A program made the translations under genes and the position numbers. DNA of 64,000 nt. Origin: Escherichia coli. GTDB lineage: Bacteria; Pseudomonadota; Gammaproteobacteria; Enterobacterales; Enterobacteriaceae. Positions 6,102 to 23,905 of this stretch are shown here, piece by piece; the first letter of the stretch is position 1, and every line of letters starts with the position of its first letter. The notes under the pieces were generated by a model. The model was not told the DNA's origin and ran no database searches. It worked only from the letters and a program-made list of their open reading frames with translations. The stretch lies in assembly GCF_024223415.1 (NCBI RefSeq), contig NZ_CP100500.1; one strand, 5' to 3'.

Positions 6102-6185
6102 ATCAGTTTCACCATCCAACCCTGTACGCCAGAATGGTTTCACTGTCACTCAGTTCTGCTATTGCCTTTTTCATCTCCCTTTACC

Positions 6186-6400: not shown

Positions 6401-6556
6401 TACTGGCTTAATGGATACATACGGCGGTCGGTTCTTACGGTAAAACGACACAACCAAACGCTTCTTATCCTGCAATGAACTGCTTTATTACCGAGTTTAG
6501 TGACCGCACAGACACTCACTTTTAAGAAAAACAGAATGGTAAACAAACTCCATGAA

Positions 6557-6745
6557 TTACAATAGCTCTCTGGCTGCCGCCACAATAGCTTGCGCGGTTA
6601 ACCCGTACTCTCTCTGTAAAAAGTCCTGAGTTTCAACCTGGCCATACCGCTCTTTAACCCCCACCCGACGCATGGGCACAGGACAAGTTTCTACAAGCAC
6701 TTCAGCAACTGCTGAACCTAATCCATTATGAATACGGTAATGACT
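6557..6745 (-). pseudogene. 3' fragment of a transketolase-like (TPP enzyme) C-terminal-subunit gene, truncated at the IS1 end
   Basis: Minus-strand translation ...HNGLGSAVAEVLVETCPVPMRRVGVKERYGQVETQDFLQREYGLTAQAIVAAARELL then stop (6557-6559); the frame runs straight into the IS1-like inverted repeat at 6745. Confidence 0.5.
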
Positions 6746-6812
6746 CCAATTAGTTGAATTAGGAGTATAATAGCCACTTTTAAGGTTCTTTCATGGTCAC
6801 AGTTAACCTTCA

Positions 6813-7064
6813 TTGCTCCTGTTGCCAGTCCGTTCAGGTTTACCGTCACGGGAAGAACCCAAAGGACATGATCGATTTCGCTGCCGTGACTGTCATCGAG
6901 TGCTTCAGCTCACTTACCGTTACGAGGCCCGTAAACCGGGAGTTAAAGAGCAAATCACTGAAATGGCTTTCAACGGTGCCGGAGTTCGCGATACTGCCCG
7001 TACGCTGAAAATCGGCATTAATACTGTCATCCGGACTTTAAAAAACTCTCGCCACGAAGAATAA
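6813..7064 (+). CDS. insA: IS1-family InsA-like protein
   Basis: 83-aa ORF with Cys-rich N-terminus (CRDCHRVLQL) and InsA-like HTH (ITEMAFNGAGVRDTARTLKIGINTVIRTLKNS); divergent from canonical IS1 InsA. Confidence 0.7.
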   Translation: MLLLPVRSGLPSREEPKGHDRFRCRDCHRVLQLTYRYEARKPGVKEQITEMAFNGAGVRDTARTLKIGINTVIRTLKNSRHEE

Positions 7065-7082
7065 CGTCATACCCGGTCGCTC

Positions 7083-7377
7083 ATGCTGATATGGCACTCA
7101 TCTGCGAACTTGATGAGCAATGGAGTTTTGTCGGCAGTAAAGCGCGACAGCACTGGCTCTGGTACACGTACAACACGAAAACTGGTGGCGTTCTGGCCTA
7201 CACTTTTGGCCTACGGACTGATTAAACCTGTCGTGAATTGCTGGCGCTGCTTGCCCTTTTACCATCGGTATGTTGACCACTGACGAATGGGGTAGTTACA
7301 CCAGAGAGTTACCGAAGGAGAAGCATCTGACTGGTAAGATTTTTACTCAGCGCATTGAGCGCAACATCTACCTCTGA
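7083..7377 (+). pseudogene. insB: IS1-family InsB-like transposase, interrupted
   Basis: Pieces ...DEQWSFVGSKARQHWLWYTYNTKTGGVLAYTFG... and ...DEWGSYTRELPKEKHLTGKIFTQRIERN... match InsB but lie in different frames with stops. Confidence 0.6.
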
Positions 7378-8019
7378 GAACCCGAATCAAACGTCTGGCC
7401 CGCAGAACTATCTGTTTCTCGCGCTCTGTAGAACTTCATGAAAAAGTCATCGGTGCCTTTATCGAAAAATATATGTTCTACTAATTGGAGTCACCACCTT
7501 CGTTTGTTTAAAGAACCTGCTGGTCCTGCCATTAATATTACCTGCTGATTGCTTCACATCCGGATTCCTCGCACTGCGCGCGGGTTATTGTTTCGTTTTC
7601 GGCCACGGGGTCGCCAGGGCTCTGTTTGCAGGCCATGATGGCCTGACCTGTACTGTTTCTCAGGCACTGAGATGTCCGTTTACGCCATTTGTTCCCTGCC
7701 CCTCTGTCTGATAACGAATACGCTCACAACGCACAGTACTGAACAATACCGACAACAACATGTCTTACATGAAATTCGCTGTAACATCCACCGGAAAACA
7801 TTTTCAGATATCGGATGAGGTACTACTTCCATTGACAGCGCGAGGTAACAAAATTGATGGTAACTCTGACCATTAACCGTAAACCGCAGGGTATTTTCAG
7901 TAAATCACCGGCAACGCCGCTGCAGGATAAAACGGACACAGCATACAAAATGAAGGCCGGTGACCAGATACCACAGTTGAACGATAAACAGAAACCTGCT
8001 GATAAAACACCGTGGCGAC

Positions 8020-8365
8020 ATGACAAAACGCCAGAGCAAAAACCGTAAGCGCATTATTCGTCTTGTGGAACTCTGGCCTGAGTCATTCAACCGGGAAAAA
8101 AACAAAACCACTTAAAGTGGGGATACCTGACGACCTGATACAGGATATCGCCATCCGAGAACTGGCGTTTGGCGCTGGTACATTACATGCAGCAGTGGCG
8201 TCTTATGTGCAGTCTCCGCGCTATTACCGTGCGTTAATAGCAGGTGGCGCCCGTTACAACCTGAACGGTCAGCCGTGCGGGGAAGTGACACCACAGGAAC
8301 AGAAAGAGGCAGAGACCCGTTTAATGATGCTGAATGACCGACGAAAAGACAGAAAACCTCGTTGA
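8020..8365 (+). CDS. FinO/ProQ-domain RNA-binding protein, frameshifted in an A7 run
   Basis: Frame from ATG 8020 gives MTKRQSKNRKRIIRLVELWPESFNREK then a stop; the next frame continues KPLKVGIPDDLIQDIAIRELAFGAGTLHAAVASYVQSPRYYRALIAGGARYNLNGQPCGEVTPQEQKEAE, matching the ProQ N-terminal/FinO domain signature. The frames join if the A7 run at 8096-8102 is A6. Confidence 0.6.
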
Positions 8366-8382
8366 CTGCACAACAGCGCTGT

Positions 8383-9135
8383 TCACTGAGCTGTAATCAA
8401 TGTACAGCGCTGTACCGGGCGATGGGTAATACCGGTCACAACCGGTAACCCCAGAGACAATGCAACTGTTTTTAACGCAATATACTGGCCGGATGTATCA
8501 CCCCGGGCAGCCTGAAAACACCTTTCCACCCGGCATTGTCCGTCAGCACTTATCACCCGCCATGTCTGTTGCAATAAATCCACCCGTTGCGAACATTCTT
8601 CATCAACCGTGGCACTGACCCGTGGATGGCAAATGCTCGTCTGGCTGAGCAGCAACAGGCATCGCATTGTTGCTCCTCCATGTTGTTCCCGCAACCAGCG
8701 TAATACCACCGGTGGTGCTGGACTGGCCGTGTGATTACGTTCAGTAATACGCTCGTGCACCTGTCGGTAAAAGGAAGTACAGAATGCATGAATCTGTTGT
8801 CCGTTGATGTTTCCTTCTGCCGAATGGAGTGTGAAGTGGACGGCCAGCAGACGCGGCCAGTGATCCACCGCCTGCTGAATAAAACGCCGGATTTCCACCG
8901 GCTCTGAAAGTACGGTTTCGGTTATTTGCACGATTTGATCCCCTTGAATGTTGCTGAACCGGTGTCGGTACGCAGGAAAGCACGCCGAGACCGGTACGAT
9001 GCCTGTTACAGCGAAGAACGAGGAATGACAGACGGGGGCAGCAGGTCGCCAGCACCAGGGACAGGGCTGATTTCCACAATACCAACGCTGGTATTTTGCA
9101 CATTGCCAGCGTACCGGCATTACAACACGTTTCAT
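8383..9135 (-). CDS. Gp2-family (YagK/YfjJ-like) island protein, third paralog, possibly degenerate
   Basis: Shares a motif pattern with the two upstream paralogs (LLAVHFTLHS..., VLRWLREQHGG...MRCLLLLS). Start uncertain; the Met at 9135 would overlap the alpA stop in an ATGA arrangement. The N-terminal region is low-complexity. Confidence 0.45.
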   Translation of the reverse strand: MKRVVMPVRWQCAKYQRWYCGNQPCPWCWRPAAPVCHSSFFAVTGIVPVSACFPAYRHRFSNIQGDQIVQITETVLSEPVEIRRFIQQAVDHWPRLLAVHFTLHSAEGNINGQQIHAFCTSFYRQVHERITERNHTASPAPPVVLRWLREQHGGATMRCLLLLSQTSICHPRVSATVDEECSQRVDLLQQTWRVISADGQCRVERCFQAARGDTSGQYIALKTVALSLGLPVVTGITHRPVQRCTLITAQ

Positions 9136-9368
9136 GCTGCTGCCCCTCGTGATGCCTCGATTCGTTGCTGCATCCACTGCTCCACTTCACTTTTGTACCA
9201 GCGGCTGCTGCGCCCCAGTTTGATGGGTTTAGGGAAATGGCCTTCACTGATCAGCTTGTAAAACCATTTGTCGGTCATACCAGTGAAGCTGGTGATGTAG
9301 TTCATGTCGATCAGGGGATCGTCGGCACGCAGCAATACGCTGTCGTGACCTGTCATTGAGGTCAACAT
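9132..9368 (-). CDS. alpA: AlpA-family phage/island transcriptional regulator
   Basis: Small ORF with the AlpA-type HTH (MTDKWFYKLISEGHFPKPIKLGRSSRWYKSEVEQW); the true start may be an internal Met. Confidence 0.75.
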   Translation of the reverse strand: MLTSMTGHDSVLLRADDPLIDMNYITSFTGMTDKWFYKLISEGHFPKPIKLGRSSRWYKSEVEQWMQQRIEASRGAAA

Positions 9369-9436
9369 GGTCAGAATGTCCTCTGTGAGATTTATGAATG
9401 TTGGGCAAATGCGGGTGAATCTGCTGAGCTGAGCTT

Positions 9437-10039
9437 TCAGAGCTGGCCTGCTACGGGATACCAGGGATTACCGGCGAGGTAACGGGCTTCCGGATCGCGC
9501 ACACCACGACGATCGCGGGCGAAATCACTGAACGCCCATATCAGCTCTTTGAGTCTCTCTTCGCAGTCCGGTGAACAACTGTCCAGCGCCACATCCCGGG
9601 TTATCTGTTTCTGGTACGGTGCCGCTTCACCCGGTGACGCGAAGCCCAGTACGTTGCTCCAGGCATCCAGAATCAGCCGATCCAGTTCAGGGCCGTCGAA
9701 ATACTCCTGTCTGACGCACAGCACCACGTGGTATTCCGGTTTTTCAGGATGACGAGTCAGGAGCCAGCAGAGGTCACGTCCGGGTGTTGCATTCATCAGC
9801 GCACTGACGGTTTCGATAAAGGCCATACCGAACCAGGTTTTTCTGTCGCTGAAGATGTTGCCATGTTCCCCCGGCAGACGAAGCAGGATCCGCCGTATTC
9901 GGGAGCAGGACTGCTCGCGCAACACACGGTTGAGAACGCCGATGATTTTGTTCTGATAAGATGGCCAGAAGGGCGCCATGCTATAGTCGAAATAAGGGAT
10001 AGCATTCATAAGATATGTTCCGTTATACGCAGCCCACAA
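9437..10039 (-). CDS. Gp2-family (YagK/YfjJ-like) island protein
   Basis: 200-aa ORF paralogous to 10366-11097 (e.g. ...KPEYHVVLCVRQEYFDGPELDRLILDAWSNVLG); belongs to the family common in CP4-type islands. Confidence 0.6.
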   Translation of the reverse strand: MWAAYNGTYLMNAIPYFDYSMAPFWPSYQNKIIGVLNRVLREQSCSRIRRILLRLPGEHGNIFSDRKTWFGMAFIETVSALMNATPGRDLCWLLTRHPEKPEYHVVLCVRQEYFDGPELDRLILDAWSNVLGFASPGEAAPYQKQITRDVALDSCSPDCEERLKELIWAFSDFARDRRGVRDPEARYLAGNPWYPVAGQL

Positions 10040-10365
10040 CGCGTCCTGCCCGTGGATGCGCTGACGTGTTATGGCTTGCGTATGGGGTTGATGGAATAAG
10101 TGAAAAACCGCGGCAGAACGGGAAGATCAGGTAACCGACAAGGGACAGAACACCGGATGCAGGTTCAGAATGAATGATCTCCGTTGACTTCGGTTCACAT
10201 CATTAAGCAGGACAGTAAGGTTTTACCGACGGAGTGTTTCCAGGAGCGAAAGCAGAGAAAAATACCGTTGCATGACTTCAGGACGACTTTTTCAGAAAAC
10301 GAGCTAAGGGCGTCAGCCAACGTCCTGTAGCATAAGCTCAGGCACCGGATGTCGTTTTACAGGGC

Positions 10366-11097
10366 TCACCTGCCATCCAGCAGACGCCCCGGCCCACGAC
10401 TGCAACCATAATTACGTTGCCCGGAACCGTCATGCTGCTTCGTCTCATATTTCACGAGATAACTGGCTCTGTTCCGGGCTTTCTGCAGCGCTTCCACATC
10501 ACCACGCTTGATCCAGAGAACAGCGGCTTCACCCGGCTTTTTTTCTGAAGCCTTCCTGGTATCAGAACATCCACCCGACAAAGGCGTGTCATCGGAAGAA
10601 GGGCGAGCATCAGACGATGCTGGTTTACGGGAAGGCGTCCACCTGGAAAAATGGGCCAGGCCATCGCCTTGCCAGGCCTCAAGATGCAGGGCGCTGCACC
10701 ATGCCTCCAGGATCATCGTCGCCAGCGAAGATGGTTCGCTGAAATCCCCTGGCGAGCACCAGGTATCTTTGTTGAGCAGCAATATCACGTGATAATGTTT
10801 CCTGCCTTTTTCCTTGCCAAACTCCCGACACCAGAAATAACGCAGAGTGGTTGCACGCACACGCTTGTTGGCACGTCGTTTTTTCCGCTGGTAAGCCTGG
10901 ATTTTGGCTTTCAGGGATTCGAAAAAACGAGAAATCACCGCTGAATCCGGATCGGGATCCATGATGGTGACAGGCATATACTCAGGGAAACGTAAATCCA
11001 CCCGGATTAACGAGACGGCACGGTGCTGCGACAGGGCACTGTCGAGAAGGCTGTCAAAACGGGATAACCAGTAAGCATTGTGTATTGGTTGATTCAT
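10366..11097 (-). CDS. Gp2-family (YagK/YfjJ-like) island protein
   Basis: 243-aa ORF (...RKHYHVILLLNKDTWCSPGDFSEPSSLATMILEAWCSAL...); its upstream leader shares a motif with the leader of 9437-10039. Confidence 0.6.
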   Translation of the reverse strand: MNQPIHNAYWLSRFDSLLDSALSQHRAVSLIRVDLRFPEYMPVTIMDPDPDSAVISRFFESLKAKIQAYQRKKRRANKRVRATTLRYFWCREFGKEKGRKHYHVILLLNKDTWCSPGDFSEPSSLATMILEAWCSALHLEAWQGDGLAHFSRWTPSRKPASSDARPSSDDTPLSGGCSDTRKASEKKPGEAAVLWIKRGDVEALQKARNRASYLVKYETKQHDGSGQRNYGCSRGPGRLLDGR

Positions 11098-12755
11098 GAT
11101 GAGAGATCTCCGTTGATTTGGATTGACTTCACATCATTAATCACCGCGGTAAAACTTTACGGCATCATGTCATTAAGCAATGCTACAACTCTCTGATTAA
11201 GAGTGATTGAAACGGAACAAACCATCCCGGAACGAAAAGATAATCCTGCACACAGCAGCAAAACACGCAACAACAGCATGAATGGATTTAAAAACGACAT
11301 GGACGACGAGAAAAGCCTGAAGGGAAAAGGATCCACAGAACATTCGAACAAAACACCAGAAACGCAACCAGAACGCTTCCTGGCAATGCAAATCAACAAC
11401 AACGCCAAAACCTACAGCTTAATCACACAACTCAATCACGAATGCGAATGACACGTTTAAAACCTGTTTACAGATAACGCCGTAACACGATCATCCCCAT
11501 CACCATCAGAATCGATTTTCTCATCCCGAAAATGTTACGTTTCACTACTCACCATAAAAACGATTAACCATCGATAACGTAAATCTCATCTGAATCAAAA
11601 AACCAAAACCAATCATCACACTTTCGCAATGCAAGAAGAAAAACCACATCATGACGAAAACAATGACCTTACATGAAAAAGCAAAACGTCAGGAATCGTT
11701 AATGCCTCAATCTGATTGTTATCAAAACATCCAGAAAGTCGTTTAACAGAATCGTCGTAAGCACATCGAAAAGAACGTCAGATCACCTCAGGAAAGTTCG
11801 GGTTGATTTAGCGTAAAGATACTTTTCTCAGCTTAACGTCGAAACACAAACCAAAAACCACAAACAACCAAAGCTCAGGAAAGGTTAAACGTCACATCAG
11901 TAAAATCGAATAGCAGATTGATTGCTTAAACAGGAAGGATTGTTTTACAGCAGCATTAAACTGATTTAGTTAACGTAAAATCAGAACTGACAGGTTTACT
12001 AACTTGGATGTGTATCAGTTCAAAAATGTGTACAGCAATGCGTAATGAAACACATTTAAAGGAGATTAATGGGAAAAGTGTGTAAATGCGTAAACAGGCA
12101 CTAATGAATCACTGGAGGAATACATACAAAACGACTTAATGAAAACATAAAAGGACCTAATGGAAAAGGTGTATATAATACCATATCCGACATTCTCAAC
12201 ATCTTAAGACATCCATGCAGACTGAATGTTGGTTTCAGTTTTTCACGGTAAGCATGAATCTTTTCTGTTCAAAAGCAGAGCAGATTTACTCTGGAATTAT
12301 TTTTCTTACTCCGTATTCTGTACAGCAAAAACTTGTGCTAACTTTACAGCAAACCATCATAATCAGCGTCTGTAGTCCCATCGCTTTACCCCATGAAAGT
12401 GAATCCATATGATGTGAGAGAGATAAGTCATCGTATCCGGTAAACACTGCTTACTATAACATAAGATCATTCAGTCAGTTTTATCTCTGAACTGACGATT
12501 ATGGCATGCTCATTTATATGGCTCACAGAGGAGTGTTATTATCCGTAAGCTTTAATCATCAAATCACATGACCATACCAAACTGGCGCTATATCAGCTCA
12601 TTTGACGCTCATTCCCTTTAGATTTCTTTATGTGTTTTTTGTCGATAATTAAAATGTAATATAAATTTAATATTTTCACATCATAAACACCATTTAAAAC
12701 CATCATCCTGAACATCATACAACAATATATTTTTACTAAAGCATGAATTGTATAT

Positions 12756-13904
12756 TTATATTAATTCAGGAAAATTATCAGGATTCACCTTTAAATTCAA
12801 CTGAATGTTACACTTAATTTCACTCAGCAGTTCTTCATGCGTGGATTTTATTATCCCTTTATCATAATCTATAAATACACACATGTTTTTCATGAATTCA
12901 AACCCTTTTCCTGTATACAGTTTGATGAATGCCACAAGAGCAAACATTTCAAGATGCAGCCATAATGCCACGTGAGTTTTTCGCAAAGTATAAAAAATTG
13001 AATTCGCCACTTTTTTACTTATTGCTCTTTTGTACTGTGAGTGCGCCAGATTCAGTAGTGGCAATTCTCTCTCGATAAATGAAAGTGAAAAAGGCGGGTA
13101 AATTGATGTCGGAAATATTTCAGGTCTTATGATATTTTCGATTTCCACCATAAATCTATCCATAGAACGAAAATCATTTTCTTTTTTTATTCTGGTATAG
13201 AGACCGCCTTTATTCCTTACTGCGACTTTTTTTCGTGCTATCCCCCCCAACATTTCCTCTAATTGTTTATTTATCTTCGTATCATTAAATACAACCATTC
13301 TTCTTATCATCCTGGGAAGGATGATAATATCAGAGCTTGAATCACTTGAACGGCAATTATTATTGATCCATGCAACTTCAAGTTGAAGTATCGGAACATT
13401 AAATTCTCTGGGGTTAATAACTCTCTGATATTGTTTTTTGTATGCGTTTTCATTAAGATATTCTCTGCTGTAGAGAAACTTATAGCAATATAATCTGACA
13501 ATATCCTTTATGTAAGATTTAAATGAGTCACCTGTAACAGATATATTTTTTCTTCTCAGTAACTCCTGTGTATTGAGCCATTCCCGTGACCGGAGTACTC
13601 CATTATGAAGACTTTTTCTTACTTGCTTTGAATTGCGCAATTGATGTAATATTTTTGCGTCCTCAACAATTCTCTTTCCCGTTTGATTTCTTGCAGCATC
13701 TATTACTCTGTCAAATATCTCCCGGTCCAGACTTTTGTCATATTTACTGATTATACGACAAATATTCCTGACCCGACGGTTCTCTTTATTTCGTTTCCAT
13801 AACTGATAATGATCATCACATAACCTCAGGGCATTTGCCTCATCAAATTCTGAAACAGGATTGCTGCATTTTTTATTCCGACAGATACCTTTGTTTTTAG
13901 CCAT
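12756..13904 (-). CDS. hypothetical protein, orphan AT-rich island cargo gene, function unknown
   Basis: Uninterrupted 382-aa ORF, visibly AT-rich against the flanking genes; N-terminal Cys/His cluster (CRNKKCSN...LCDDHYQLW), K/R-rich, no long hydrophobic segments. No family recognised by me. Divergent from the YeeP-like gene across a 100-bp intergenic region. Confidence 0.6.
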   Translation of the reverse strand: MAKNKGICRNKKCSNPVSEFDEANALRLCDDHYQLWKRNKENRRVRNICRIISKYDKSLDREIFDRVIDAARNQTGKRIVEDAKILHQLRNSKQVRKSLHNGVLRSREWLNTQELLRRKNISVTGDSFKSYIKDIVRLYCYKFLYSREYLNENAYKKQYQRVINPREFNVPILQLEVAWINNNCRSSDSSSDIIILPRMIRRMVVFNDTKINKQLEEMLGGIARKKVAVRNKGGLYTRIKKENDFRSMDRFMVEIENIIRPEIFPTSIYPPFSLSFIERELPLLNLAHSQYKRAISKKVANSIFYTLRKTHVALWLHLEMFALVAFIKLYTGKGFEFMKNMCVFIDYDKGIIKSTHEELLSEIKCNIQLNLKVNPDNFPELI

Positions 13905-14004
13905 ACTCTTCTTCCCGTCAATGGAAAAATTTTCACGTCCATATTACCTGACTGATAGGCCGGATTAATGTGATCCGGTTCAGTGAAATCAACAGGATAA
14001 CGGT

Positions 14005-14889
14005 ATGTCATTCAGCCATTCTTCCCTCTCCGCACACGTAAAGTCACATCTGACCTTTCTTCCTGAAGAAATTCGCCAGAAAATCCTTGAACATCTTCGC
14101 AGCGTCATTCAGTACGAACCCGTTATTGGCATTATGGGTAAATCCGGTGCCGGAAAAAGCAGCCTGTGCAATGCCATTTTTCAGTCCCGTGTCTGCGCCA
14201 CGCATCCGCTGAACGGCTGCACCCGTCAGGCTCATCGTCTTACCTTTCAGCCCGGTGAACGAAGAATGACGCTGGTCGATCTGCCCGGCACTGGCGAAAC
14301 ACCACAGCATGATCAGGAATACCGGGCACTTTACAGTCAGTTACTGCCCGAACTGGATCTGATTATCTGGATCCTGCGGGCTGATGAACGTGCGTATGCT
14401 GCCGACATCGCCATGCATCAGTTTTTACTGAATGAAGGTGCCGATCCCTCGCGTTTTCTGTTTGTTCTCAGCCATGCCGATCGCATCCACCCGGCTGAAG
14501 AATGGAACAACCAGAGCAGCACGCCATCCCGTCAGCAGGAACTCTCACTGGCGACGGTGACAGCCCGGGTGGCAACCCTGTTCCCTTCATCATTTCCGGT
14601 ACTCCCCATAGCCGCCCCTGCCGGCTGGAATCTTCCGGCATTTGTGTCTCTGATGATCCACGCCCTGCCACCACAGGCAACCAGCGCGGTTTATTCGCAT
14701 ATCCGGAATGAAAAGCGCACTGCGCAGGATCAGCAACACGCACAGCAGGCTTTTGGTGACGCCATCGGCCAGAGTTTTGACGCTGCCATTGCCCGGTTCA
14801 GCTTTCCGGCCTGGATGCTGCAGCTTCTGCGCAAAGCCCGTGATCGCATTATCCGCCTGCTGATCACACTGTGGGATCGCCTGTTCTGA
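14005..14889 (+). CDS. YeeP/YfjP/YkfA-family GTPase
   Basis: 294-aa ORF with P-loop GIMGKSGAGKSSLCNAIF and DLPGTGE motif; typical first gene of the CP4-type conserved module. Confidence 0.8.
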   Translation: MSFSHSSLSAHVKSHLTFLPEEIRQKILEHLRSVIQYEPVIGIMGKSGAGKSSLCNAIFQSRVCATHPLNGCTRQAHRLTFQPGERRMTLVDLPGTGETPQHDQEYRALYSQLLPELDLIIWILRADERAYAADIAMHQFLLNEGADPSRFLFVLSHADRIHPAEEWNNQSSTPSRQQELSLATVTARVATLFPSSFPVLPIAAPAGWNLPAFVSLMIHALPPQATSAVYSHIRNEKRTAQDQQHAQQAFGDAIGQSFDAAIARFSFPAWMLQLLRKARDRIIRLLITLWDRLF

Positions 14890-15074
14890 ATGTCCCCGCT
14901 TTTTGACCGGCCCCGGCGATAACCAGGAAACGCATTTCCGGTTGCGTCACCACAATGCTGAAGGGCTTCGGTAAACCCTCATTCATTTCATCCATCAGGC
15001 CGCGTCTTCTCCGTGAGACGCGGCTTTTTCATTGATTACGTCATTCAGTCTTAACCACTGATAAGGAGCAAAGT

Positions 15075-15893
15075 ATGCGATTAGCCAGTCGTTTTGGTTA
15101 TGCGAACCAGATACGCCGTGACCGTCCGCTGACCCGTGAAGAGCTGATGCACCATGTGCCCGGGATTTTCGGGGAAGATAAACACACCTCCCGGAGCCGG
15201 AACTATACATACATCCCCACCATCACCGTGCTGGAAAGCCTGCAGCGGGAAGGCTTTCAGCCATTCTTCGCCTGCCAGACCCGCGTACGTGACCCGGGCC
15301 GCCGGGGGTATACCAAACACATGCTGCGTCTGCGCCGTGACGGGGAGATAAACGGACAACATGTCCCTGAAATTATTCTGCTCAACTCTCATGACGGTAC
15401 CTCCAGCTACCAGATGCTGCCGGGTTACTTCAGGTTCGTCTGCCAGAACGGATGCGTCTGCGGTCAGTCTCTGGGGGAAGTGCGTGTTCCGCACCGGGGA
15501 AATGTGGTGGACAGAGTCATTGAAGGGGCTTACGAGGTGGTGGGCGTGTTTGACCGGATAGAGGAGAAGCGTGATGCCATGCAGTCGCTGGTCCTGCCGC
15601 CACCGGCACGCCAGGCGCTGGCACAGGCGGCACTGACTTACCGTTATGGTGACGAACATCAGCCCGTCACCACCGCCGACATTCTGACGCCGCGACGCCG
15701 GGAGGATTACGGTAAGGACCTGTGGAGCGCATATCAGACCATCCAGGAGAATATGCTGAAAGGCGGGATTTCCGGTCGCAGTGCAAAAGGAAAACGTATC
15801 CATACCCGGGCCATTCACAGCATTGATACCGACATTAAGCTCAATCGCGCATTGTGGGTGATGGCAGAAACGATGCTGGAGAGCCTGCGCTGA
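15075..15893 (+). CDS. DUF932-family protein (YfjQ/YafZ-like)
   Basis: 272-aa ORF closely resembling remembered YfjQ/YafZ sequences (MRLASRFGY...ILLNSHDGTSSYQ...). Confidence 0.8.
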   Translation: MRLASRFGYANQIRRDRPLTREELMHHVPGIFGEDKHTSRSRNYTYIPTITVLESLQREGFQPFFACQTRVRDPGRRGYTKHMLRLRRDGEINGQHVPEIILLNSHDGTSSYQMLPGYFRFVCQNGCVCGQSLGEVRVPHRGNVVDRVIEGAYEVVGVFDRIEEKRDAMQSLVLPPPARQALAQAALTYRYGDEHQPVTTADILTPRRREDYGKDLWSAYQTIQENMLKGGISGRSAKGKRIHTRAIHSIDTDIKLNRALWVMAETMLESLR

Positions 15894-15974
15894 TGCCGTT
15901 TCCCTGAGTGAGGGAATCATTCAGCTTTCGTTCCTGAAAAACACACATTTATTTGTTATTTAAGGAGTTATCTC

Positions 15975-16454
15975 ATGAAAACCGTTTCTCAGAATACCCC
16001 CACAATTTATTCAGCTACAACACCAGAGAATAATCCGCCTCAGTTGGTTGCCAGCCTCGTCCCTGATGAACAGCGCATCAGCTTCTGGCCGCAGCACTTT
16101 GGCCTCATTCCACAGTGGGTGGCCCTGGAGCCCCGTGTCTTCGGCTGGATGGACCGTCTGTGTGAAGACTACTGCGGTGGTATCTGGAATCTGTACACCC
16201 TGAACAACGGCGGGGCATTTATGGCACCCGAACCGGATGACGATGATGACGAAACATGGGTACTGTTCAATGCCATGAACGGTAACCGCGCTGAAATGAG
16301 TCCGGAAGCTGCCGGCATTGCTGCCTGTCTGATGACGTACAGTCATCACGCCTGTCGTACGGAGTGTTATGCCATGACGGTCCATTATTACCGGCTGCGG
16401 GATTACGCCCTGCAGCATCCGGAATGCAGCGCCATTATGCGCATCATCGACTGA
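15975..16454 (+). CDS. antirestriction protein, KlcA/ArdB-like (YfjX/YafX family)
   Basis: 159-aa ORF with an acidic stretch (PEPDDDDDE), position and sequence typical of the island antirestriction proteins. Confidence 0.75.
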   Translation: MKTVSQNTPTIYSATTPENNPPQLVASLVPDEQRISFWPQHFGLIPQWVALEPRVFGWMDRLCEDYCGGIWNLYTLNNGGAFMAPEPDDDDDETWVLFNAMNGNRAEMSPEAAGIAACLMTYSHHACRTECYAMTVHYYRLRDYALQHPECSAIMRIID

Positions 16455-16946
16455 ATGGAGGCAGGGACAATGCAGCAGCTTTCCTTTCTGCCCGGAGAGA
16501 TGACGCCCGGCGAGCGCAGTCTCATTCTGCGGGCCCTGAAAACTCTGGACCGCCATCTTCATGAACCCGGCGTGGCCTTCACCTCCACCCGTGCGGCACG
16601 GGAATGGCTGATTCTGAACATGGCGGGACTGGAGCGTGAAGAATTCCGGGTGCTGTATCTGAATAACCAGAATCAACTGATTGCCGGTGAAACCCTCTTC
16701 ACCGGCACCATCAACCGCACGGAAGTCCATCCCCGGGAAGTGATTAAACGCGCCCTGTACCACAATGCCGCTGCCGTGGTGCTGGCGCACAATCACCCGT
16801 CCGGTGAAGTCACACCCAGCAAGGCAGACCGCCTTATCACGGAACGTCTGGTACAGGCACTGGGCCTGGTGGATATCCGGGTGCCGGACCATCTGATAGT
16901 CGGTGGCAACCAGGTTTTCTCCTTTGCCGAACATGGTCTGCTTTAA
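16455..16946 (+). CDS. RadC-like JAB-domain protein (YeeS/YfjY/YkfG family)
   Basis: JAB/MPN motif HNHPSGEVTPSKADRLITERL; start may be the internal Met (MQQLSF..., 16470). Confidence 0.8.
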   Translation: MEAGTMQQLSFLPGEMTPGERSLILRALKTLDRHLHEPGVAFTSTRAAREWLILNMAGLEREEFRVLYLNNQNQLIAGETLFTGTINRTEVHPREVIKRALYHNAAAVVLAHNHPSGEVTPSKADRLITERLVQALGLVDIRVPDHLIVGGNQVFSFAEHGLL

Positions 16947-17008
16947 CCCGTCACAACCACATCACGCTTGTTTGCACTTTTATCTTCTGTCTTCAGAGGT
17001 ATCACACT

Positions 17009-17230
17009 ATGAAAATCATCACCCGTGGTGAAGCCATGCGTATTCACCAACAACATCCGGCATCCCGTCTTTTTCCTTTCTGTACCGGCAAATACCGCTG
17101 GCACGGCAGTGCTGAGGCGTATACCGGTCGTGAAGTGCAGGATATTCCCGGTGTGCTGGCCGTGTTTGCTGAACGCCGTAAGGACAGTTTTGGCCCGTAT
17201 GTCCGGCTGATGAACGTCACTCTGAACTGA
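17009..17230 (+). CDS. yeeT: DUF987 protein (YeeT/YkfH-like)
   Basis: 73-aa ORF, near-identical to remembered YeeT (MKIITRGEAMRIHQQHP...). Confidence 0.8.
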   Translation: MKIITRGEAMRIHQQHPASRLFPFCTGKYRWHGSAEAYTGREVQDIPGVLAVFAERRKDSFGPYVRLMNVTLN

Positions 17231-17248
17231 GTCAGTAAGGGCACTCTG

Positions 17249-17880
17249 ATGAGCAGAATTATCACCATCACAGTGTATACGCTGGATGAACTTTCCTGCC
17301 CGGCACGGGAAAAAGCCCGCGACGGGTACCGTCAGCATCATGCTGACAGCAACTGGTATGAAAACGTGTATGAGGACGTCAGGGAGGTCTGTGGCATTTT
17401 CGGAATTGACCTCTGCCAGCGTGTTATCCGTCTCAGCAACGGCAGGTTTATGGAAGAGCCGTGCATCTGGTTCAGCGGATTCTGCAGCCAGGGACGGAGC
17501 CTGTTTTGAAGGACGCTGGCACTGGCAGTCAGCAACAACCAGGAGAGTCCGGGAGTATGCCCCGCAGAACCGTGAGCTTCATCGTATCGCGGATGCCCTG
17601 CAGGCGGTGCAGAAACGTAACTTCTGGCAACTGCAGGCTGAAATCCACCACCGGGGACGTTACTGCCATCCGTTATCACTGTTACCCGGAACAGTCCGAC
17701 TGGTCAGGCTATGACAGCCGATGCGGAAGCCGCTGTCAGCGAAGCCCTGCGCGACCTGGCCTTCTGGCTGTACCGTCAACTGGAAAACGAGTACGACCAG
17801 ATGACCTCAGACGCCGCTGTGGATGAGGCCATTCTCATCAATGCATACATCTTCACCGAAACCGGTCAGCGCACCGGCTG
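17249..17880 (+). pseudogene. island ORF split across frames, family unknown
   Basis: Protein-like translation runs in one frame (17249-17509), shifts to a second (to 17714), then returns to the first (ATG 17711 to stop 17878-17880, ...AVSEALRDLAFWLYRQLENEYDQ...). Two frame changes would be needed for a single product. Confidence 0.45.
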
Positions 17881-17930
17881 ACCTGTCATCGTTAAACCAT
17901 TCTTAACCACTTTTCAGAGAGGATTTTATC

Positions 17931-18299
17931 GTGTCAGACACACTCTCCGGGATAACTCATCCCGACGACAATCACGACCGCCCCTGGTGGGGGCTTCCCT
18001 GCACAGTGAGGCCCTGTTTTGGCGCCCGTCTGGTGCAGGAGGGTAACCGCCTGCATTACCTTGCCGACCGCGCCGGCATCAGAGGCCGGTTCAGCGATGC
18101 GGATGCATACCATCTGGACCAGGCCTTTCCGCTGCTGATGAAACAACTGGAACTCATGCTCACCAGCGGTGAACTGAATCCCCGCCATCAGCATACCGTC
18201 ACGCTGTATGCAAAAGGGCTGACCTGCGAAGCCGACACCCTCGGCAGTTGTGGTTACGTTTATCTGGCTGTTTATCCGACGCCCGAAACGAAAAAGTAA
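17931..18299 (+). CDS. cbeA: type IV toxin-antitoxin antitoxin CbeA (YeeU family)
   Basis: 122-aa ORF near-identical to remembered CbeA/YeeU (MSDTL...NHDRPWWGLPCTV...). Confidence 0.85.
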   Translation: MSDTLSGITHPDDNHDRPWWGLPCTVRPCFGARLVQEGNRLHYLADRAGIRGRFSDADAYHLDQAFPLLMKQLELMLTSGELNPRHQHTVTLYAKGLTCEADTLGSCGYVYLAVYPTPETKK

Positions 18300-18389
18300 A
18301 CCACCGGAATAACCTTCTGCTCCGGCCAGGTGTTTTCACCACGCCACTCTCCCCATAATTTAATCTCTCATATCAGGAAAATCTTCAGT

Positions 18390-18800
18390 ATGAAATTATT
18401 ACCCGACACACATGTACGGGAGGCATCGTGCTGCCCGTCTCCCGTCACCATCTGGCAGACACTGCTCATCCGTCTGCTGGACCAGCACTATGGCCTCACA
18501 CTGAATGACACACCGTTCGCTGATGAACGTGTGATTGAGCAGCATATTGAGGCCGGCATTTCACTGTGCGATGCGGTGAACTTTCTCGTTGAAAAATACG
18601 CACTGGTACGTACCGACCAGCCGGGATTCAGCGCAGGAGCCCCGTCGCAGTTAATCAACAGCATCGATATTCTCCGGGCCCGCCGGGCAACAGGCCTGAT
18701 GACACGTAATAACTACAGAATGGTAAATAACATTACCCTGGGTAGCATCCGGGGGCGAAACGATGAAACTTTCCCTGACGCTGGAAGCCGACAGCGTTAA
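18390..18800 (+). CDS. cbtA: type IV toxin-antitoxin toxin CbtA (YeeV family), divergent extended C-terminus
   Basis: From the internal Met MKLLPD..., strong match to CbtA through ...MVNNITLG, then a different 18-residue tail that overlaps the next ORF by 38 nt. Confidence 0.75.
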
Positions 18801-19185
18801 CGTACAGGCGCTGAACATGGGGCGAATTGTCGTTGACATTGATGGTGTTGAGCTCACTGAACTGATTAACAAGGTCGCTGAAAACGGTTATTCACTCCGC
18901 GTGGTGGATGAACGTGACGCTACCGAAACACCGGCGACTTCTGCCAGCTCTCATCAGTTGCCGGAAGACAATACAGTGATACAGAGCGTGATGCCATTAA
19001 CCACTGAAACAGCGCTGGATATCCTCATTGCGTGGCTGCAGGACAATATCGACTGCGGGTCCGGAATTATTTTCGACAACGATGAGGATAAAACGGATTC
19101 GGCAGCACTGCTGCCCTGTATTGAACAGGCCAGGGAGGATATCCGTACCCTGCACCAACTGCAACTTCTGCACCAGAACCGGTGA
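18763..19185 (+). CDS. YeeW-like protein
   Basis: 140-aa ORF immediately after cbtA, as in CP4-type islands; identity is from recollection of yeeW-like genes, moderate certainty. Confidence 0.5.
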
Positions 19186-19269
19186 ATCTCACTCACCAGA
19201 CTTCATTCTCCTGACGCCAGCCTGAACAGAGCTGGCGTTTTCGTTTATAAACAGAAAGGAAACCCCATA

Positions 19270-19833
19270 ATGTCATATATCACAATCCCCCACCCGAACG
19301 CGGTCAACGGACATACAGCCGTTATCTGTTCCACAAGTATCCGCCACATTCTGGCTGTACGAAAGAGTACACTGCTGCAAATCGACACACTTATCCGGCA
19401 ACTGGCTGAAATATCAGCAATGACAGAAAGTATTGGCGGTAAAGCCGCCCCGGGCTGGGCCATGAAACAGGATTTTCGCTGCGGCTGCTGGCTGATGGAG
19501 AAACCGGAAACCGCAATGAAAGCCATCACACGCAATCTCGATCGCGAAATCTGGCGTGACCTGATGCAACGTTCAGGGATGCTTTCCTTAATGGATGCAC
19601 AGGCCCGTGATACATGGTACCGGTCACTGGAGTACGATAATTTTCCGGAAATCAGCGAAGCGAACATTCTGAGCACATTTAAACAACTGCACCAGAATAA
19701 GGATGAGCTGTTTGAGCGGGGGGAGATCAACGTCTTCAGAGGACTGAGCCGGGATTACAAAACCAGGTCGCCCTGCAAATTTAGTAATAAAATTATCATC
19801 AACAACCTGGTGAGGTGGGACCAGTGGGGATAA
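19270..19833 (+). CDS. hypothetical protein, terminal ORF of the island (possibly DUF4942-like)
   Basis: 187-aa ORF, last gene before the island boundary; family assignment uncertain. Confidence 0.45.
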   Translation: MSYITIPHPNAVNGHTAVICSTSIRHILAVRKSTLLQIDTLIRQLAEISAMTESIGGKAAPGWAMKQDFRCGCWLMEKPETAMKAITRNLDREIWRDLMQRSGMLSLMDAQARDTWYRSLEYDNFPEISEANILSTFKQLHQNKDELFERGEINVFRGLSRDYKTRSPCKFSNKIIINNLVRWDQWG

Positions 19834-20028
19834 TGAGATGGTTCCCCCCCACCTTAACAGCAGTACGCTGTTAAGGTGAATCCCTTTATGCTTCCCCCCT
19901 TTCACCTCATCTTCCAACACCCGGGTTTGATTCCTTTTTCACAGCAAAAGGGACTGAGGGTACAAAAGAGGGTATATTTTTCACCAAACCAAACAAAACA
20001 AACAAATATCAACATGATAGAAGAAATC

Positions 20029-20050
20029 TTCGATTCCGAGTCCGGCACCA
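20029..20050 (+). repeat. partial direct repeat of the tRNA-Phe 3' end (att site of the pheU island)
   Basis: ttcgattccgagtccggcacca matches the 3' end of E. coli tRNA-Phe (GGTTCGATTCCGAGTCCGGGCACCA) except for one missing G; no full tRNA gene is present, so this is the distal repeat. Confidence 0.75.
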
Positions 20051-20061
20051 AATTCATATAA

Positions 20062-20088
20062 ACGGACCTCCACGGAGGTCCGTTTTTC
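20062..20088 (+). terminator. intrinsic terminator (pheU-type) after the att repeat
   Basis: Hairpin acggacctcc/ggaggtccgt followed by a T-run. Confidence 0.6.
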
Positions 20089-20666: not shown

Positions 20667-22205
20667 ATGCAACAACCTGTAGTTCGCGTTGGCGAATGGC
20701 TTGTTACTCCGTCCATAAACCAAATTAGCCGCAATGGGCGTCAACTTACCCTTGAGCCGAGATTAATCGATCTTCTGGTTTTCTTTGCTCAACACAGTGG
20801 CGAAGTACTTAGCAGGGATGAACTTATCGATAATGTCTGGAAGAGAAGTATTGTCACCAATCACGTTGTGACGCAGAGTATCTCAGAACTACGTAAGTCA
20901 TTAAAAGATAATGATGAAGATAGTCCTGTCTATATCGCTACTGTACCAAAGCGCGGCTATAAATTAATGGTGCCGGTTATCTGGTACAGCGAAGAAGAGG
21001 GAGAGGAAATAATGCTATCTTCGCCTCCCCCTATACCAGAGGCGGTTCCTGCCACAGATTCTCCCTCCCACAGTCTTAACATTCAAAACACCGCAACGCC
21101 ACCTGAACAATCCCCAGTTAAAAGCAAACGATTCACTACCTTTTGGGTATGGTTTTTTTTCCTGTTGTCCTTAGGTATCTGTGTAGCACTGGTAGCGTTT
21201 TCAAGTCTTGATACACGTCTTCCGATGAGCAAATCGCGTATTTTGCTCAATCCACGCGATATTGACATTAATATGGTAAATAAAAGTTGTAACAGCTGGA
21301 GTTCCCCGTATCAGCTCTCTTACGCGATAGGCGTGGGTGATTTGGTGGCGACATCACTTAACACCTTCTCCACCTTTATGGTGCATGACAAAATCAACTA
21401 CAACATTGATGAACCGAGCAGTTCCGGTAAAACATTATCTATTGCGTTTGTTAATCAGCGCCAATACCGTGCTCAACAATGCTTTATGTCGATAAAATTG
21501 GTAGACAATGCAGATGGTTCAACCATGCTGGATAAACGTTATGTCATCACTAACGGTAATCAGCTGGCGATTCAAAATGATTTACTGGAGAGTTTATCAA
21601 AAGCGTTAAACCAACCGTGGCCACAACGAATGCAGGAGACGCTCCAGCAAATTTTGCCTCATCGTGGTGCGTTATTAACTAATTTTTATCAGGCACATGA
21701 TTATTTACTGCATGGCGATGATAAATCATTGAACCGTGCGAGTGAATTATTAGGTGAGATTGTTCAATCATCCCCAGAATTTACCTACGCGAGAGCAGAA
21801 AAAGCATTAGTTGATATCGTGCGCCATTCTCAACACCCTTTAGATGAAAAACAATTAGCAGCACTGAACACAGAAATAGACAACATTGTTACACTACCGG
21901 AATTGAATAACCTGTCCATTATATATCAAATAAAAGCGGTCAGTGCTCTGGTAAAAGGTAAAACAGATGAGTCTTACCAGGCGATAAATACTGGTATTGA
22001 TCTTGAAATGTCCTGGCTAAATTATGTGTTGCTTGGCAAGGTTTATGAAATGAAGGGGATGAACCGGGAAGCAGCTGATGCATATCTCACCGCCTTTAAT
22101 TTACGCCCAGGGGCAAACACCCTTTACTGGATTGAAAATGGTATATTCCAGACTTCTGTTCCTTATGTTGTACCTTATCTCGACAAATTTCTCGCTTCAG
22201 AATAA
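20667..22205 (+). CDS. cadC: CadC, membrane-bound ToxR-like activator of cadBA
   Basis: 512-aa ORF matching CadC (N-terminal winged-helix DNA-binding domain, single TM segment, periplasmic sensor). Confidence 0.95.
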   Translation: MQQPVVRVGEWLVTPSINQISRNGRQLTLEPRLIDLLVFFAQHSGEVLSRDELIDNVWKRSIVTNHVVTQSISELRKSLKDNDEDSPVYIATVPKRGYKLMVPVIWYSEEEGEEIMLSSPPPIPEAVPATDSPSHSLNIQNTATPPEQSPVKSKRFTTFWVWFFFLLSLGICVALVAFSSLDTRLPMSKSRILLNPRDIDINMVNKSCNSWSSPYQLSYAIGVGDLVATSLNTFSTFMVHDKINYNIDEPSSSGKTLSIAFVNQRQYRAQQCFMSIKLVDNADGSTMLDKRYVITNGNQLAIQNDLLESLSKALNQPWPQRMQETLQQILPHRGALLTNFYQAHDYLLHGDDKSLNRASELLGEIVQSSPEFTYARAEKALVDIVRHSQHPLDEKQLAALNTEIDNIVTLPELNNLSIIYQIKAVSALVKGKTDESYQAINTGIDLEMSWLNYVLLGKVYEMKGMNREAADAYLTAFNLRPGANTLYWIENGIFQTSVPYVVPYLDKFLASE

Positions 22206-22570: not shown

Positions 22571-23905
22571 ATGAGTTCTGCCAAGAAGATCGGGCTATTT
22601 GCCTGTACCGGTGTTGTTGCCGGTAATATGATGGGGAGCGGTATTGCATTATTACCTGCGAACCTAGCAAGTATCGGTGGTATTGCTATCTGGGGTTGGA
22701 TTATCTCTATTATTGGTGCAATGTCGCTGGCGTATGTATATGCCCGACTGGCAACAAAAAACCCGCAACAAGGTGGCCCAATTGCTTATGCCGGAGAAAT
22801 TTCTCCTGCATTTGGTTTTCAGACAGGTGTTCTTTATTACCATGCTAACTGGATTGGTAACCTGGCGATTGGTATTACCGCTGTATCTTATCTTTCCACC
22901 TTCTTCCCAGTATTAAATGATCCTGTTCCGGCGGGTATCGCCTGTATTGCTATCGTCTGGGTATTTACCTTTGTAAATATGCTCGGCGGTACCTGGGTAA
23001 GCCGTTTAACCACTATTGGTCTGGTGCTGGTTCTTATTCCTGTGGTGATGACTGCTATTGTTGGCTGGCATTGGTTTGATGCGGCAACTTATGCAGCTAA
23101 CTGGAATACTGCGGATACCACTGATGGTCATGCGATCATTAAAAGTATTCTGCTCTGCCTGTGGGCCTTCGTGGGTGTTGAATCCGCAGCAGTAAGTACT
23201 GGTATGGTTAAAAACCCGAAACGTACCGTTCCGCTGGCAACCATGCTGGGTACTGGTTTAGCAGGTATTGTTTATATCGCTGCGACTCAGGTGCTTTCCG
23301 GTATGTATCCGTCTTCTGTTATGGCGGCTTCCGGTGCTCCGTTTGCAATCAGTGCTTCAACTATCCTCGGTAACTGGGCTGCGCCGCTGGTTTCTGCATT
23401 CACCGCCTTTGCGTGCCTGACTTCTCTGGGCTCCTGGATGATGTTGGTAGGCCAGGCAGGTGTACGTGCCGCTAACGACGGTAACTTCCCGAAAGTTTAT
23501 GGTGAAGTCGACAGCAACGGTATTCCGAAAAAAGGTCTGCTGCTGGCTGCAGTGAAAATGACTGCCCTGATGATCCTCATCACTCTGATGAACTCTGCCG
23601 GTGGTAAAGCATCTGACCTGTTCGGTGAACTGACCGGTATCGCAGTACTGCTGACTATGCTGCCGTACTTCTACTCTTGCGTTGACCTGATTCGTTTTGA
23701 AGGCGTTAACATCCGCAACTTTGTCAGCCTGATCTGCTCTGTACTGGGTTGCGTGTTCTGCTTCATCGCGCTGATGGGCGCAAGCTCCTTCGAGCTGGCA
23801 GGTACCTTCATCGTCAGCCTGATTATCCTGATGTTCTACGCTCGCAAAATGCACGAGCGCCAGAGCCACTCAATGGATAACCAAACAGCGTCTAACGCAC
23901 ATTAA
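22571..23905 (+). CDS. cadB: lysine/cadaverine antiporter
   Basis: 444-aa APC-family transporter matching CadB, upstream of cadA. Confidence 0.95.
   Translation: MSSAKKIGLFACTGVVAGNMMGSGIALLPANLASIGGIAIWGWIISIIGAMSLAYVYARLATKNPQQGGPIAYAGEISPAFGFQTGVLYYHANWIGNLAIGITAVSYLSTFFPVLNDPVPAGIACIAIVWVFTFVNMLGGTWVSRLTTIGLVLVLIPVVMTAIVGWHWFDAATYAANWNTADTTDGHAIIKSILLCLWAFVGVESAAVSTGMVKNPKRTVPLATMLGTGLAGIVYIAATQVLSGMYPSSVMAASGAPFAISASTILGNWAAPLVSAFTAFACLTSLGSWMMLVGQAGVRAANDGNFPKVYGEVDSNGIPKKGLLLAAVKMTALMILITLMNSAGGKASDLFGELTGIAVLLTMLPYFYSCVDLIRFEGVNIRNFVSLICSVLGCVFCFIALMGASSFELAGTFIVSLIILMFYARKMHERQSHSMDNQTASNAH

Follow-up and report, generated by a model that had tools for sequence, protein, structure and literature searches.

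Genes of the module

Positions 14005-19833 of the 64-kb stretch of DNA analysed here (the window) hold a series of genes that all lie on the plus strand: genes for a GTPase, a DUF932 protein, an ArdB/KlcA protein, a RadC protein and YeeT, a disrupted gene for a 214-aa protein, cbeA, cbtA, a yeeW-like ORF and a truncated DUF4942 gene. Gene families were assigned with Pfam, with E-values far beyond chance. The first gene (14005-14889) is intact and encodes a 294-aa small GTPase of the YeeP/YfjP/YkfA kind (MMR_HSR1, 2e-14; Dynamin_N, 7e-10). Its product is only 31-35% identical to K-12 YeeP, YfjP and YkfA (~31% to YeeP of CP4-44), is 68% and 53% identical to copies in Citrobacter and Klebsiella, and was found in 1,883 of 5,426 E. 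coli genomes. Judged by its sequence, it is a divergent, distinct subtype. In PADLOC the GTPase had a single, weak match, between its C-terminal region and LeoBC (3.8e-7), and a literature search on the YfjP/YkfA/YeeP GTPases returned no functional study.

The next four genes are intact as well. The 272-aa DUF932 protein (15075-15893; Pfam, 6e-52) is a homologue of YfjQ and YafZ, with ~75% identity to each, and is 97% identical to the CFT073 copy. The 159-aa ArdB/KlcA-fold antirestriction protein (15975-16454; Pfam Antirestrict, 2e-37) matched its family over the full length, is near-identical to the solved ArdB-type structure 2WJ9 (5e-101), matched KlcA (2KMG) at 4e-21 and shares 67-70% identity with the CP4-57 and CP4-6 proteins. 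It is followed by a 158-aa RadC-like JAB protein (16470-16946, the ORF being called from 16455 or 16470; Pfam RadC, 8e-45). This YeeS homologue is 99% identical to YeeS, 100% to the CFT073 copy and 78-82% to the CP4-57 and CP4-6 proteins; a paralogous RadC, LfgB, is reported to act as a protease (PMC10846083). YeeT (DUF987; 17009-17230; Pfam, 5e-40) has 73 residues and is 97% identical to CP4-44 YeeT. Beyond it lies a pseudogene of a 214-aa island protein (17249-17881). Aligned to the intact CFT073 gene, it lacks 2 nt in the G-run at 17491-17493 and 10 nt after 17673. The NCBI annotation pipeline PGAP names the protein 'antitoxin of toxin-antitoxin stability system' and finds it frameshifted in the related islands of E41 and B771; it had no match in Pfam, NCBIfam or PDB. 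Sequence searches of PDB with the DUF932, 214-aa and DUF4942 proteins yielded nothing meaningful.

cbeA (yeeU; 17931-18299) is intact and encodes a 122-aa type IV antitoxin that matched Pfam CbeA_antitoxin over profile positions 1-100 of 101 (8e-55), is 92% identical to K-12 CbeA and matched the YeeU structure 2H28 at 7e-77. The toxin gene cbtA (yeeV; 18390-18800) follows; its product matched CbtA_toxin over the entire profile, 1-112 of 112 (2e-59), and is 86% identical to CP4-44 CbtA. The locus has an antitoxin-then-toxin gene pair with full-length matches to both families. The preliminary description had called the pair apparently intact, which holds strictly only for cbeA; the frame of cbtA is interrupted by a 1-nt deletion at 18744. 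The deletion replaces the last 7 residues (KHPxAKR) with an 18-residue frameshifted tail, extending the ORF by 11 codons. In E41 and B771, where the allele recurs, PGAP labels it 'frameshifted'. However, core residues 1-118 are complete, and the alignment indicates that every family-invariant residue is kept, including F65, the FtsZ-contact residue of CbtA (PMC5624674). Because the frameshift is terminal and the core complete, the CbtA of the window is probably still toxic. Toxicity is seen in the shorter paralogues YpjF and YkfI and persists when GFP is fused to the C terminus of CbtA (PMC5624674); in the family alignment, both paralogues end before the altered tail. The frameshift could also destabilise the toxin. 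The deletion phenotypes reported for K-12 relate to oxidative stress and biofilm (PMC5371832).

The last two genes have lost sequence. In the 140-aa yeeW-like ORF (18763-19185; DUF5983_N, 8e-30), the N-terminal domain of DUF5983 is fused in frame to DUF957 and the C-terminal domain of DUF5983 (~280 nt) is missing, a deletion allele of the same type as K-12 yeeW. The DUF4942 gene (19270-19833; Pfam, 2.5e-32, profile 1-98 of 190) is cut off after residue 186 of 281, and the same truncation junction occurs in 141 genomes. In place of its 3' end is an 88-nt filler (19832-19919) that holds a perfect 12-bp hairpin, CACCTTAACAGC-AGTAC-GCTGTTAAGGTG. Two long antisense ORFs, 15081-15920 and 16011-16934, were not accepted as genes, since none of the relatives has them annotated and they overlap genes with good support.

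Boundaries and relatives of the island

The conserved block spans ~13930 to 20052. Its left edge lies ~75 nt before the GTPase start, where homology begins in genomes that carry this GTPase but another gene upstream of it. Its right edge is attR (20031-20052, plus strand), a 22-nt direct repeat of the tRNA-Phe 3' end (TTCGATTCCGAGTCCGGCACCA, with one G missing) that marks the right boundary of the island. With its 1-nt deletion, the repeat escaped searches for the tRNA-Phe 3' end that were exact or allowed 3 mismatches, and was recognised on direct inspection of the DNA. It is supported by an alignment that includes the pheU and pheV junctions of B771, Ec-050 and E41, and homology with E41 stops at 20058. 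Next comes pheU-specific flanking DNA with a hairpin on the plus strand (20060-20085), which we read as the chromosomal pheU terminator outside the island, then cadC (20667-22205) and cadB (22571-23905). GC content is 55% in the module and 33-42% in the flanks.

Positions 14005-19833 form one end of a genomic island of E. coli, an end that is partly decayed and lies at pheU beside cadC. The block from ~13930 to 20052 is very probably the conserved arm on the attR side of this island, which would be a large, IS-ridden, CP4-like (P4-integrase-type) element. ARAGORN found no tRNA gene in the window, pheU itself lying outside it, and no integrase was present among the ORFs of 1-14000; the island type therefore rests on the attR repeat and homology. 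The start of the window falls inside the island. A scan of 49 kb further into the island of the relative E41 did not reach the island end. We rejected a functional P4-like satellite prophage, since the island has no phage genes and is composed of insertion sequences and cargo in a mosaic. An Rfam scan of 1-24000 detected no RNA family match and no isrC-like sRNA.

Pfam calls on every named family member bore out the CP4-type gene order and coordinates that had been proposed, and tblastn and blastn comparisons with CP4-44, CP4-57 and CP4-6 revealed real synteny with all three, with the GTPase, DUF932, antirestriction, RadC, DUF987, CbeA-type and CbtA-type genes in collinear order. CP4-44 (yeeP-isrC-flu-yeeR-yeeS-yeeT-cbeA-cbtA-yeeW) shares the RadC-YeeT-CbeA-CbtA-YeeW order with the window, with nucleotide identities of 95.5% over radC-yeeT and 87% over cbeA-yeeW. 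By contrast, the window lacks flu, isrC and yeeR, and CP4-44 lacks DUF932 and ArdB; in the window, yeeT and cbeA are further separated by the extra 214-aa gene, and DUF957 and DUF4942 follow downstream. In CP4-57 (yfjP-yfjQ ... yfjX/lfgA-yfjY/lfgB-ypjJ-yfjZ-ypjF) and CP4-6 (ykfA-yafZ ... yafX-ykfG-ykfH-yafW-ykfI), as in the window, the antirestriction-RadC-DUF987-antitoxin-toxin series lies beside an att site, an arrangement conserved near the att sites of K-12 prophages (PMC5371832). These two elements differ in having only 35-82% protein identity to the window, a 3-6 kb block between DUF932 and the antirestriction gene, and shorter toxins (109 and 113 aa).

Closer relatives lie outside K-12. 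The right arm of the CFT073 pheV pathogenicity island (Ag43 ... IrmA-DUF905-DUF932-ArdB-RadC-DUF987-214 aa-YeeU-CbtA-DUF5983-DUF957-DUF4942) has the gene order of the window, with 88-100% protein identity for intact genes. However, that arm is at pheV, is intact and carries Ag43, IrmA and DUF905 upstream, whereas the window copy is at pheU, lacks Ag43 and bears five lesions. The pheV island of E41 (NZ_CP069707.1) is 99% identical over window positions 1-20058 and has the same lesions; it differs in its site, at pheV next to yghD/gsp, and in an extra IS421. The B771 island is 98% identical, likewise at pheU next to cadC, and keeps a longer, frameshifted DUF4942 gene.

Module-like DNA was present at 14,714 places in 5,048 of the 5,426 E. 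coli genomes, with a median of 3 copies, and 14,707 of these places were chromosomal and 7 on plasmids. DNA resembling flu occurred at only 7,763 places, and an Ag43 gene is possible in at most about half of the E. coli module copies. At least 80% of the module query was covered in 2,303 genomes, a count that says nothing about GTPase-DUF932 adjacency, since <20% of the query is GTPase sequence; the junction was searched separately.

The two sides of the GTPase gene

The module had been described as lacking Ag43, and searches of the whole 64-kb window confirmed this: tblastn with K-12 Flu, K-12 YeeR and CFT073 IrmA and blastn with the isrC/flu regulatory region gave no match anywhere in it. 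The Ag43-carrying arrangement of CP4-44, with flu downstream of the GTPase gene, is absent. The contrast drawn with CP4-44 was correct as to the absence but not in implying an oddity, since in CP4-57 (yfjP-yfjQ) and CP4-6 (ykfA-yafZ) the GTPase gene also leads directly to DUF932 without Ag43. Published pheU islands of STEC RF1a likewise contain YeeP, YeeS, YeeT, YeeU and YeeV and no Ag43 (PMC6174562, Table 3). Absence of Ag43 is thus a common state of the module, not an exception.

DUF932 does follow the GTPase gene directly, as the preliminary description had it, but the adjacency is a deletion scar. Relative to related islands, a segment is missing at 14890-14917, between the GTPase stop and the 3' end of a DUF905 gene. 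What is left of the latter is its last 18 codons and stop (14918-14974, plus strand), which translate as DNQETHFRLRHHNAEGLR; DUF905 of SEV4 ends in ...DDQGTHFRLRHHNAEGLR. A terminator-like hairpin with a 12-bp stem and a T run (14997-15026, plus strand) separates the remnant from DUF932, and the exact GTPase/DUF905-remnant junction is present in only 46 genomes. We examined the slot in two relatives with the same GTPase subtype. The missing segment amounts to ~0.9 kb in SEV4, which has a 225-aa gene and DUF905 there, and to ~2 kb in Ec-050, which has genes for a WYL-HTH regulator, a 225-aa hypothetical protein and DUF905; neither slot contains flu. The absence of Ag43 very probably reflects a variable GTPase-DUF932 slot that was emptied by deletion, leaving the DUF905 stub.

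Could the deletion have removed flu from an island that once carried Ag43 in this slot? The scar occupies the exact position of flu, which lies after yeeP in CP4-44 and upstream of DUF905/DUF932 in CFT073, and the DUF905 stub indicates that DNA was lost here. However, the cargo of the same-subtype relatives, together with the lack of any trace of flu, isrC, yeeR or irmA in the window, makes a lost Ag43 gene improbable.

On the other side of the GTPase gene, a 100-nt divergent intergenic region (13905-14004), within which the left block edge falls, separates it from an ORF for a 407-aa, low-GC, zinc-ribbon-like protein (12756-13904, minus strand). This ORF carries a nonsense mutation at codon 383 and its product had no match in PADLOC, NCBIfam or Pfam. 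An AlphaFold model based on an alignment of 9 sequences was poor (pLDDT 56, pTM 0.36). The DNA on this side had been taken for variable cargo. That view does not hold for the adjoining ORF, which more than one genus keeps as a divergent partner of the GTPase gene: in Escherichia, Citrobacter and Klebsiella the two genes stand head to head, ~95-100 nt apart, and the TATATTACC motif of the intergenic region recurs in the Citrobacter and Klebsiella loci. Across the three genera the 407-aa protein falls to 33-35% identity while the GTPase retains 53-68%. Neither yfjP nor ykfA of K-12, whose products are only ~35% identical to the GTPase, has a divergent gene immediately upstream. Tentatively, and with the odds against it, the 407-aa protein and the GTPase may form a conserved two-gene island unit, with a regulatory switch for the island or a defence-type pair as candidate roles.

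Proposed role and state of the copy

We infer the functional roles of these genes in this strain as follows. The arm most likely acts as an establishment-and-retention kit of the element, in which ArdB, with its KlcA fold, would block type I restriction of incoming island DNA, and the RadC-like JAB protein, DUF932, YeeT and the small GTPase are conserved companions. CbtA and CbeA would act as a type IV toxin-antitoxin pair, CbtA binding FtsZ and MreB and halting division and elongation, and CbeA counteracting it at the filament level, and the pair may impose a cost on losing the island.

A different origin for the module, for instance chromosomal capture of a leading region from a conjugative plasmid or ICE, is suggested by its content: the anti-defence islands of plasmid and ICE leading regions typically contain ArdB/KlcA, RadC, DUF932 and toxin-antitoxin pairs, and in those of plasmids antirestriction genes, methyltransferases and toxin-antitoxin pairs cluster (PMC11541004). 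The related E41 island also has remnants of ICE proteins. However, the gene-by-gene synteny with K-12 CP4-44 at nucleotide identities of up to 95%, the end of the module at a tRNA-Phe direct repeat and the rarity of plasmid-borne copies make this origin extremely unlikely, and an ancient origin in common with conjugative elements would not contradict a CP4-like island. A somewhat less improbable, though still unlikely, alternative is that nothing in the block still functions, all of it being inert pseudogene debris. The lesions in the 214-aa gene, cbtA, DUF5983 and DUF4942, the DUF905 stub, the nonsense codon in the 407-aa ORF and the defect in attR are consistent with such decay, as is a simple scan that found no sigma-70-like promoter upstream of the module genes. 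The 214-aa, DUF5983 and DUF4942 genes are indeed broken. Arguing against complete decay, six ORFs (GTPase, DUF932, ArdB, RadC, YeeT and CbeA) are full length and 89-100% identical to intact CFT073 proteins, and CbtA keeps its family-invariant residues.

As a partly decayed arm of a CP4-like island, the locus is of a kind already known: a module arm without Ag43 at pheU is ordinary, and the CbtA/CbeA pair and ArdB belong to well-studied families. The value of the analysis is mainly in correct annotation, with the island boundary placed at attR (20031-20052), pheU beside cadC, and in the record of which island genes remain intact and which have decayed. Only one loose thread has some value, the uncharacterised GTPase together with the conserved 407-aa protein encoded beside it.

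Gene content and relation to K-12 CP4 elements

We examined the module at 14005-19833 using an ORF list and Pfam scans, which bore out the gene order given in the preliminary description, with every gene on the + strand. The scans identified, at full length, a GTPase (MMR_HSR1/Dynamin_N; 14005-14889; Pfam 2e-14), DUF932 (15075-15893; 6e-52), an ArdB antirestriction protein (15975-16454; 2e-37), RadC (16470-16946; 8e-45), DUF987 (YeeT; 17009-17230; 5e-40) and CbeA (17931-18299; 8e-55), while CbtA (18390-18800; 2e-59) matched its full profile. A broken ORF, the 214-aa gene, lies between YeeT and CbeA (17249-17881) and had no Pfam match. The module ends with a DUF5983_N ORF (18763-19185; 8e-30) and a DUF4942 gene (19270-19833) that matches only the first half of its Pfam profile. 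PDB sequence searches matched the antirestriction protein near-identically to the solved ArdB-type protein 2WJ9 (5e-101), with KlcA 2KMG as a relative (4e-21), and CbeA to the YeeU structure 2H28. The GC content of the module is ~55%, compared to 33-36% on its left and ~41% across cadC. Two long antisense ORFs, 15081-15920 (-; 279 aa) and 16011-16934 (-; 307 aa), run opposite DUF932 and ArdB/RadC. No related genome has them annotated, and they probably represent shadow ORFs of GC-rich coding sequence.

Synteny comparison with the K-12 elements supported the proposed CP4-type assignment, and the alignments did not point to a different element family. Similar to CP4-44, the module encodes a RadC that is 99% identical to YeeS, a YeeT 97%, a CbeA 92% and a CbtA 86% identical to their counterparts, with 95.5% nucleotide identity across radC-yeeT. 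However, CP4-44 has flu, the Ag43 gene, and yeeR in place of DUF932 and ArdB. In CP4-57 (yfjP-yfjQ) and CP4-6 (ykfA-yafZ), the GTPase gene is joined directly to DUF932 without flu, and their proteins are ~75% (DUF932), 67-70% (ArdB) and 78-82% (RadC) identical to those of the window. With no more than 31-35% identity to YeeP, YfjP and YkfA, the window GTPase represents a distinct subtype. Collectively, these gene and identity matches argue that the module is CP4-type. The core of the preliminary interpretation stood; several of its details did not.

Insertion site and the surrounding island

The module is followed on its right by cadC (20667-22205) and then cadB (22571-23905). The sequence at 20031-20052, TTCGATTCCGAGTCCGGCACCA, is the 3' end of tRNA-Phe minus one G and precedes a hairpin taken as the pheU terminator; the window itself holds no tRNA genes. 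In junction alignments, the repeat was the same in related islands, with a pheU-type flank after it in the window and in the E. coli relative B771, and a pheV-type flank in the relatives E41 and Ec-050. Part of the E41 pheV island (NZ_CP069707.1) aligns collinearly with the first 20 kb of the window at 99%, the sole difference being an additional IS421 in E41. The E41 island spans more than 70 kb and includes aerobactin and sit genes. The cadC/cadB flank, the tRNA-Phe repeat and this collinearity together indicate that a big island occupies pheU, that the module forms its attR-proximal arm, and that the window starts inside the island.

Over 1-20058, the window and E41 share one island at 99% identity, gene lesions included, yet it is inserted at pheU here and at pheV in E41, implying transfer or recombination between two identical tRNA-Phe sites. 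Transposase genes of the ISL3 and IS256/Mutator families at 318-3336 fit the insertion-sequence-ridden mosaic of the E41 island. An AlpA-family regulator (9132-9368), within 8383-10039 (-), is flanked by 264-aa and 200-aa ORFs without a match in Pfam or PADLOC, and all three are island backbone genes. The AT-rich stretch at 11100-12750 (33-40% GC), between a YagK/YfjJ-like gene (10366-11097) and a 407-aa ORF, yielded neither a sizeable ORF nor an Rfam match.

Ag43 absence and the neighbors of the GTPase gene

The reported absence of Ag43 holds throughout the 64-kb window, in which no similarity to Flu, YeeR, IrmA or isrC was found. A module without Ag43 is not notable. Of 5,426 complete E. coli genomes, 5,048 contain module-like DNA, at 14,714 places in all (median 3 per genome); for flu-like DNA the figure is only 7,763 places, spread over 4,223 genomes. 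A published survey of STEC islands includes pheU islands with YeeP, YeeS, YeeT, YeeU and YeeV that lack antigen 43 (PMC6174562, Table 3). The island cargo includes a gene for a trimeric autotransporter adhesin of the YadA-like kind (398 aa; 4216-5412, -), and thus the island has an adhesin of another class despite lacking Ag43.

DUF932 does directly follow the GTPase gene, as first described, but this is not the original layout. The exact junction was found in only 46 genomes, while the GTPase subtype is present in 1,883 E. coli genomes. Relatives that share this GTPase carry an HTH-WYL regulator, a 225-aa hypothetical protein and DUF905 (Ec-050), or the latter two (SEV4), in the slot between the GTPase stop and the DUF932 start. 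The last 18 codons of DUF905 (DNQETHFRLRHHNAEGLR*) are still encoded at 14918-14974, upstream of a terminator-like hairpin at 14997-15026. The DUF905 remnant and the occupied slot in relatives therefore identify the adjacency as a deletion scar, and there is no sign that the slot ever held flu in the window's lineage. CFT073 has an intact copy of this arm, with Ag43, insertion sequences, an 838-aa protein, IrmA and DUF905 upstream of DUF932.

The widely shared block has its left edge at ~13930, and the low-GC, zinc-ribbon-like 407-aa ORF (12756-13904, -) is separated from the GTPase gene by an intergenic region at 13905-14004. The view that variable cargo lies here could not be maintained. This ORF and the GTPase subtype form a head-to-head pair in 967 E. 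coli genomes. Distant homologues, 33-35% identical to the ORF, occupy the same position beside the same subtype (53-68% identical to the window GTPase) in Klebsiella michiganensis and Citrobacter. A TATATTACC motif is common to the intergenic regions of the window, Citrobacter and Klebsiella loci. The 407-aa ORF is a conserved GTPase partner rather than free cargo. It had no family match in Pfam, NCBIfam or PADLOC, its AlphaFold model was too poor for use, and a nonsense codon at position 383 truncates the window copy.

Decay, toxin status and proposed function

Lesions were called against the intact copy in the right arm of the CFT073 pheV pathogenicity island. Two deletions disrupt the 214-aa gene, one of 2 nt in the G-run at 17491-17493 and one of 10 nt after 17673, and a 1-nt deletion at 18744 in cbtA exchanges the final 7 residues for an 18-residue tail; PGAP (NCBI) labels the same two alleles frameshifted in E41 and B771. 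DUF5983 lacks its C-terminal domain and its N-terminal domain is fused in frame with DUF957, an allele type shared with K-12 yeeW. DUF4942 ends at residue 186 of 281, with an 88-nt filler (19832-19919) in place of its 3' third. The filler holds a perfect 12-bp hairpin (CACCTTAACAGC...GCTGTTAAGGTG) and may be a trace left by a small mobile element; its junction with DUF4942 is common to 141 genomes. Finally, the attR repeat is one G short.

The CbtA/CbeA pair had been considered intact, which is correct for the full-length CbeA but needs qualifying for CbtA because of its terminal frameshift. In a family alignment, the window CbtA keeps every family-invariant residue, including the FtsZ-contact residue F65, and two toxic paralogues, YpjF (109 aa) and YkfI (113 aa), already end before the point at which the altered tail begins. 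Furthermore, C-terminal GFP fusions to CbtA are still toxic (PMC5624674). Taken together, these points suggest a toxin that has probably remained active.

The observation is confirmed and the module is an already known feature to which we attach little significance; the pairing of the 407-aa ORF with the GTPase is the only mildly novel thread. ArdB and KlcA, the subjects of structures 2WJ9 and 2KMG, reportedly relieve type I restriction in vivo. CbtA independently contacts FtsZ and MreB, blocking division and elongation, and is neutralised by CbeA-type antitoxins (PMC5624674, PMC5371832). The paralogous RadC protein YfjY/LfgB is reported to be a protease acting on the antitoxin MqsA (PMC10846083), and antirestriction genes, methyltransferases and toxin-antitoxin pairs cluster in the anti-defence islands of plasmid leading regions (PMC11541004). 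We infer that the arm would serve as the island's establishment-and-retention kit, by now partly decayed.
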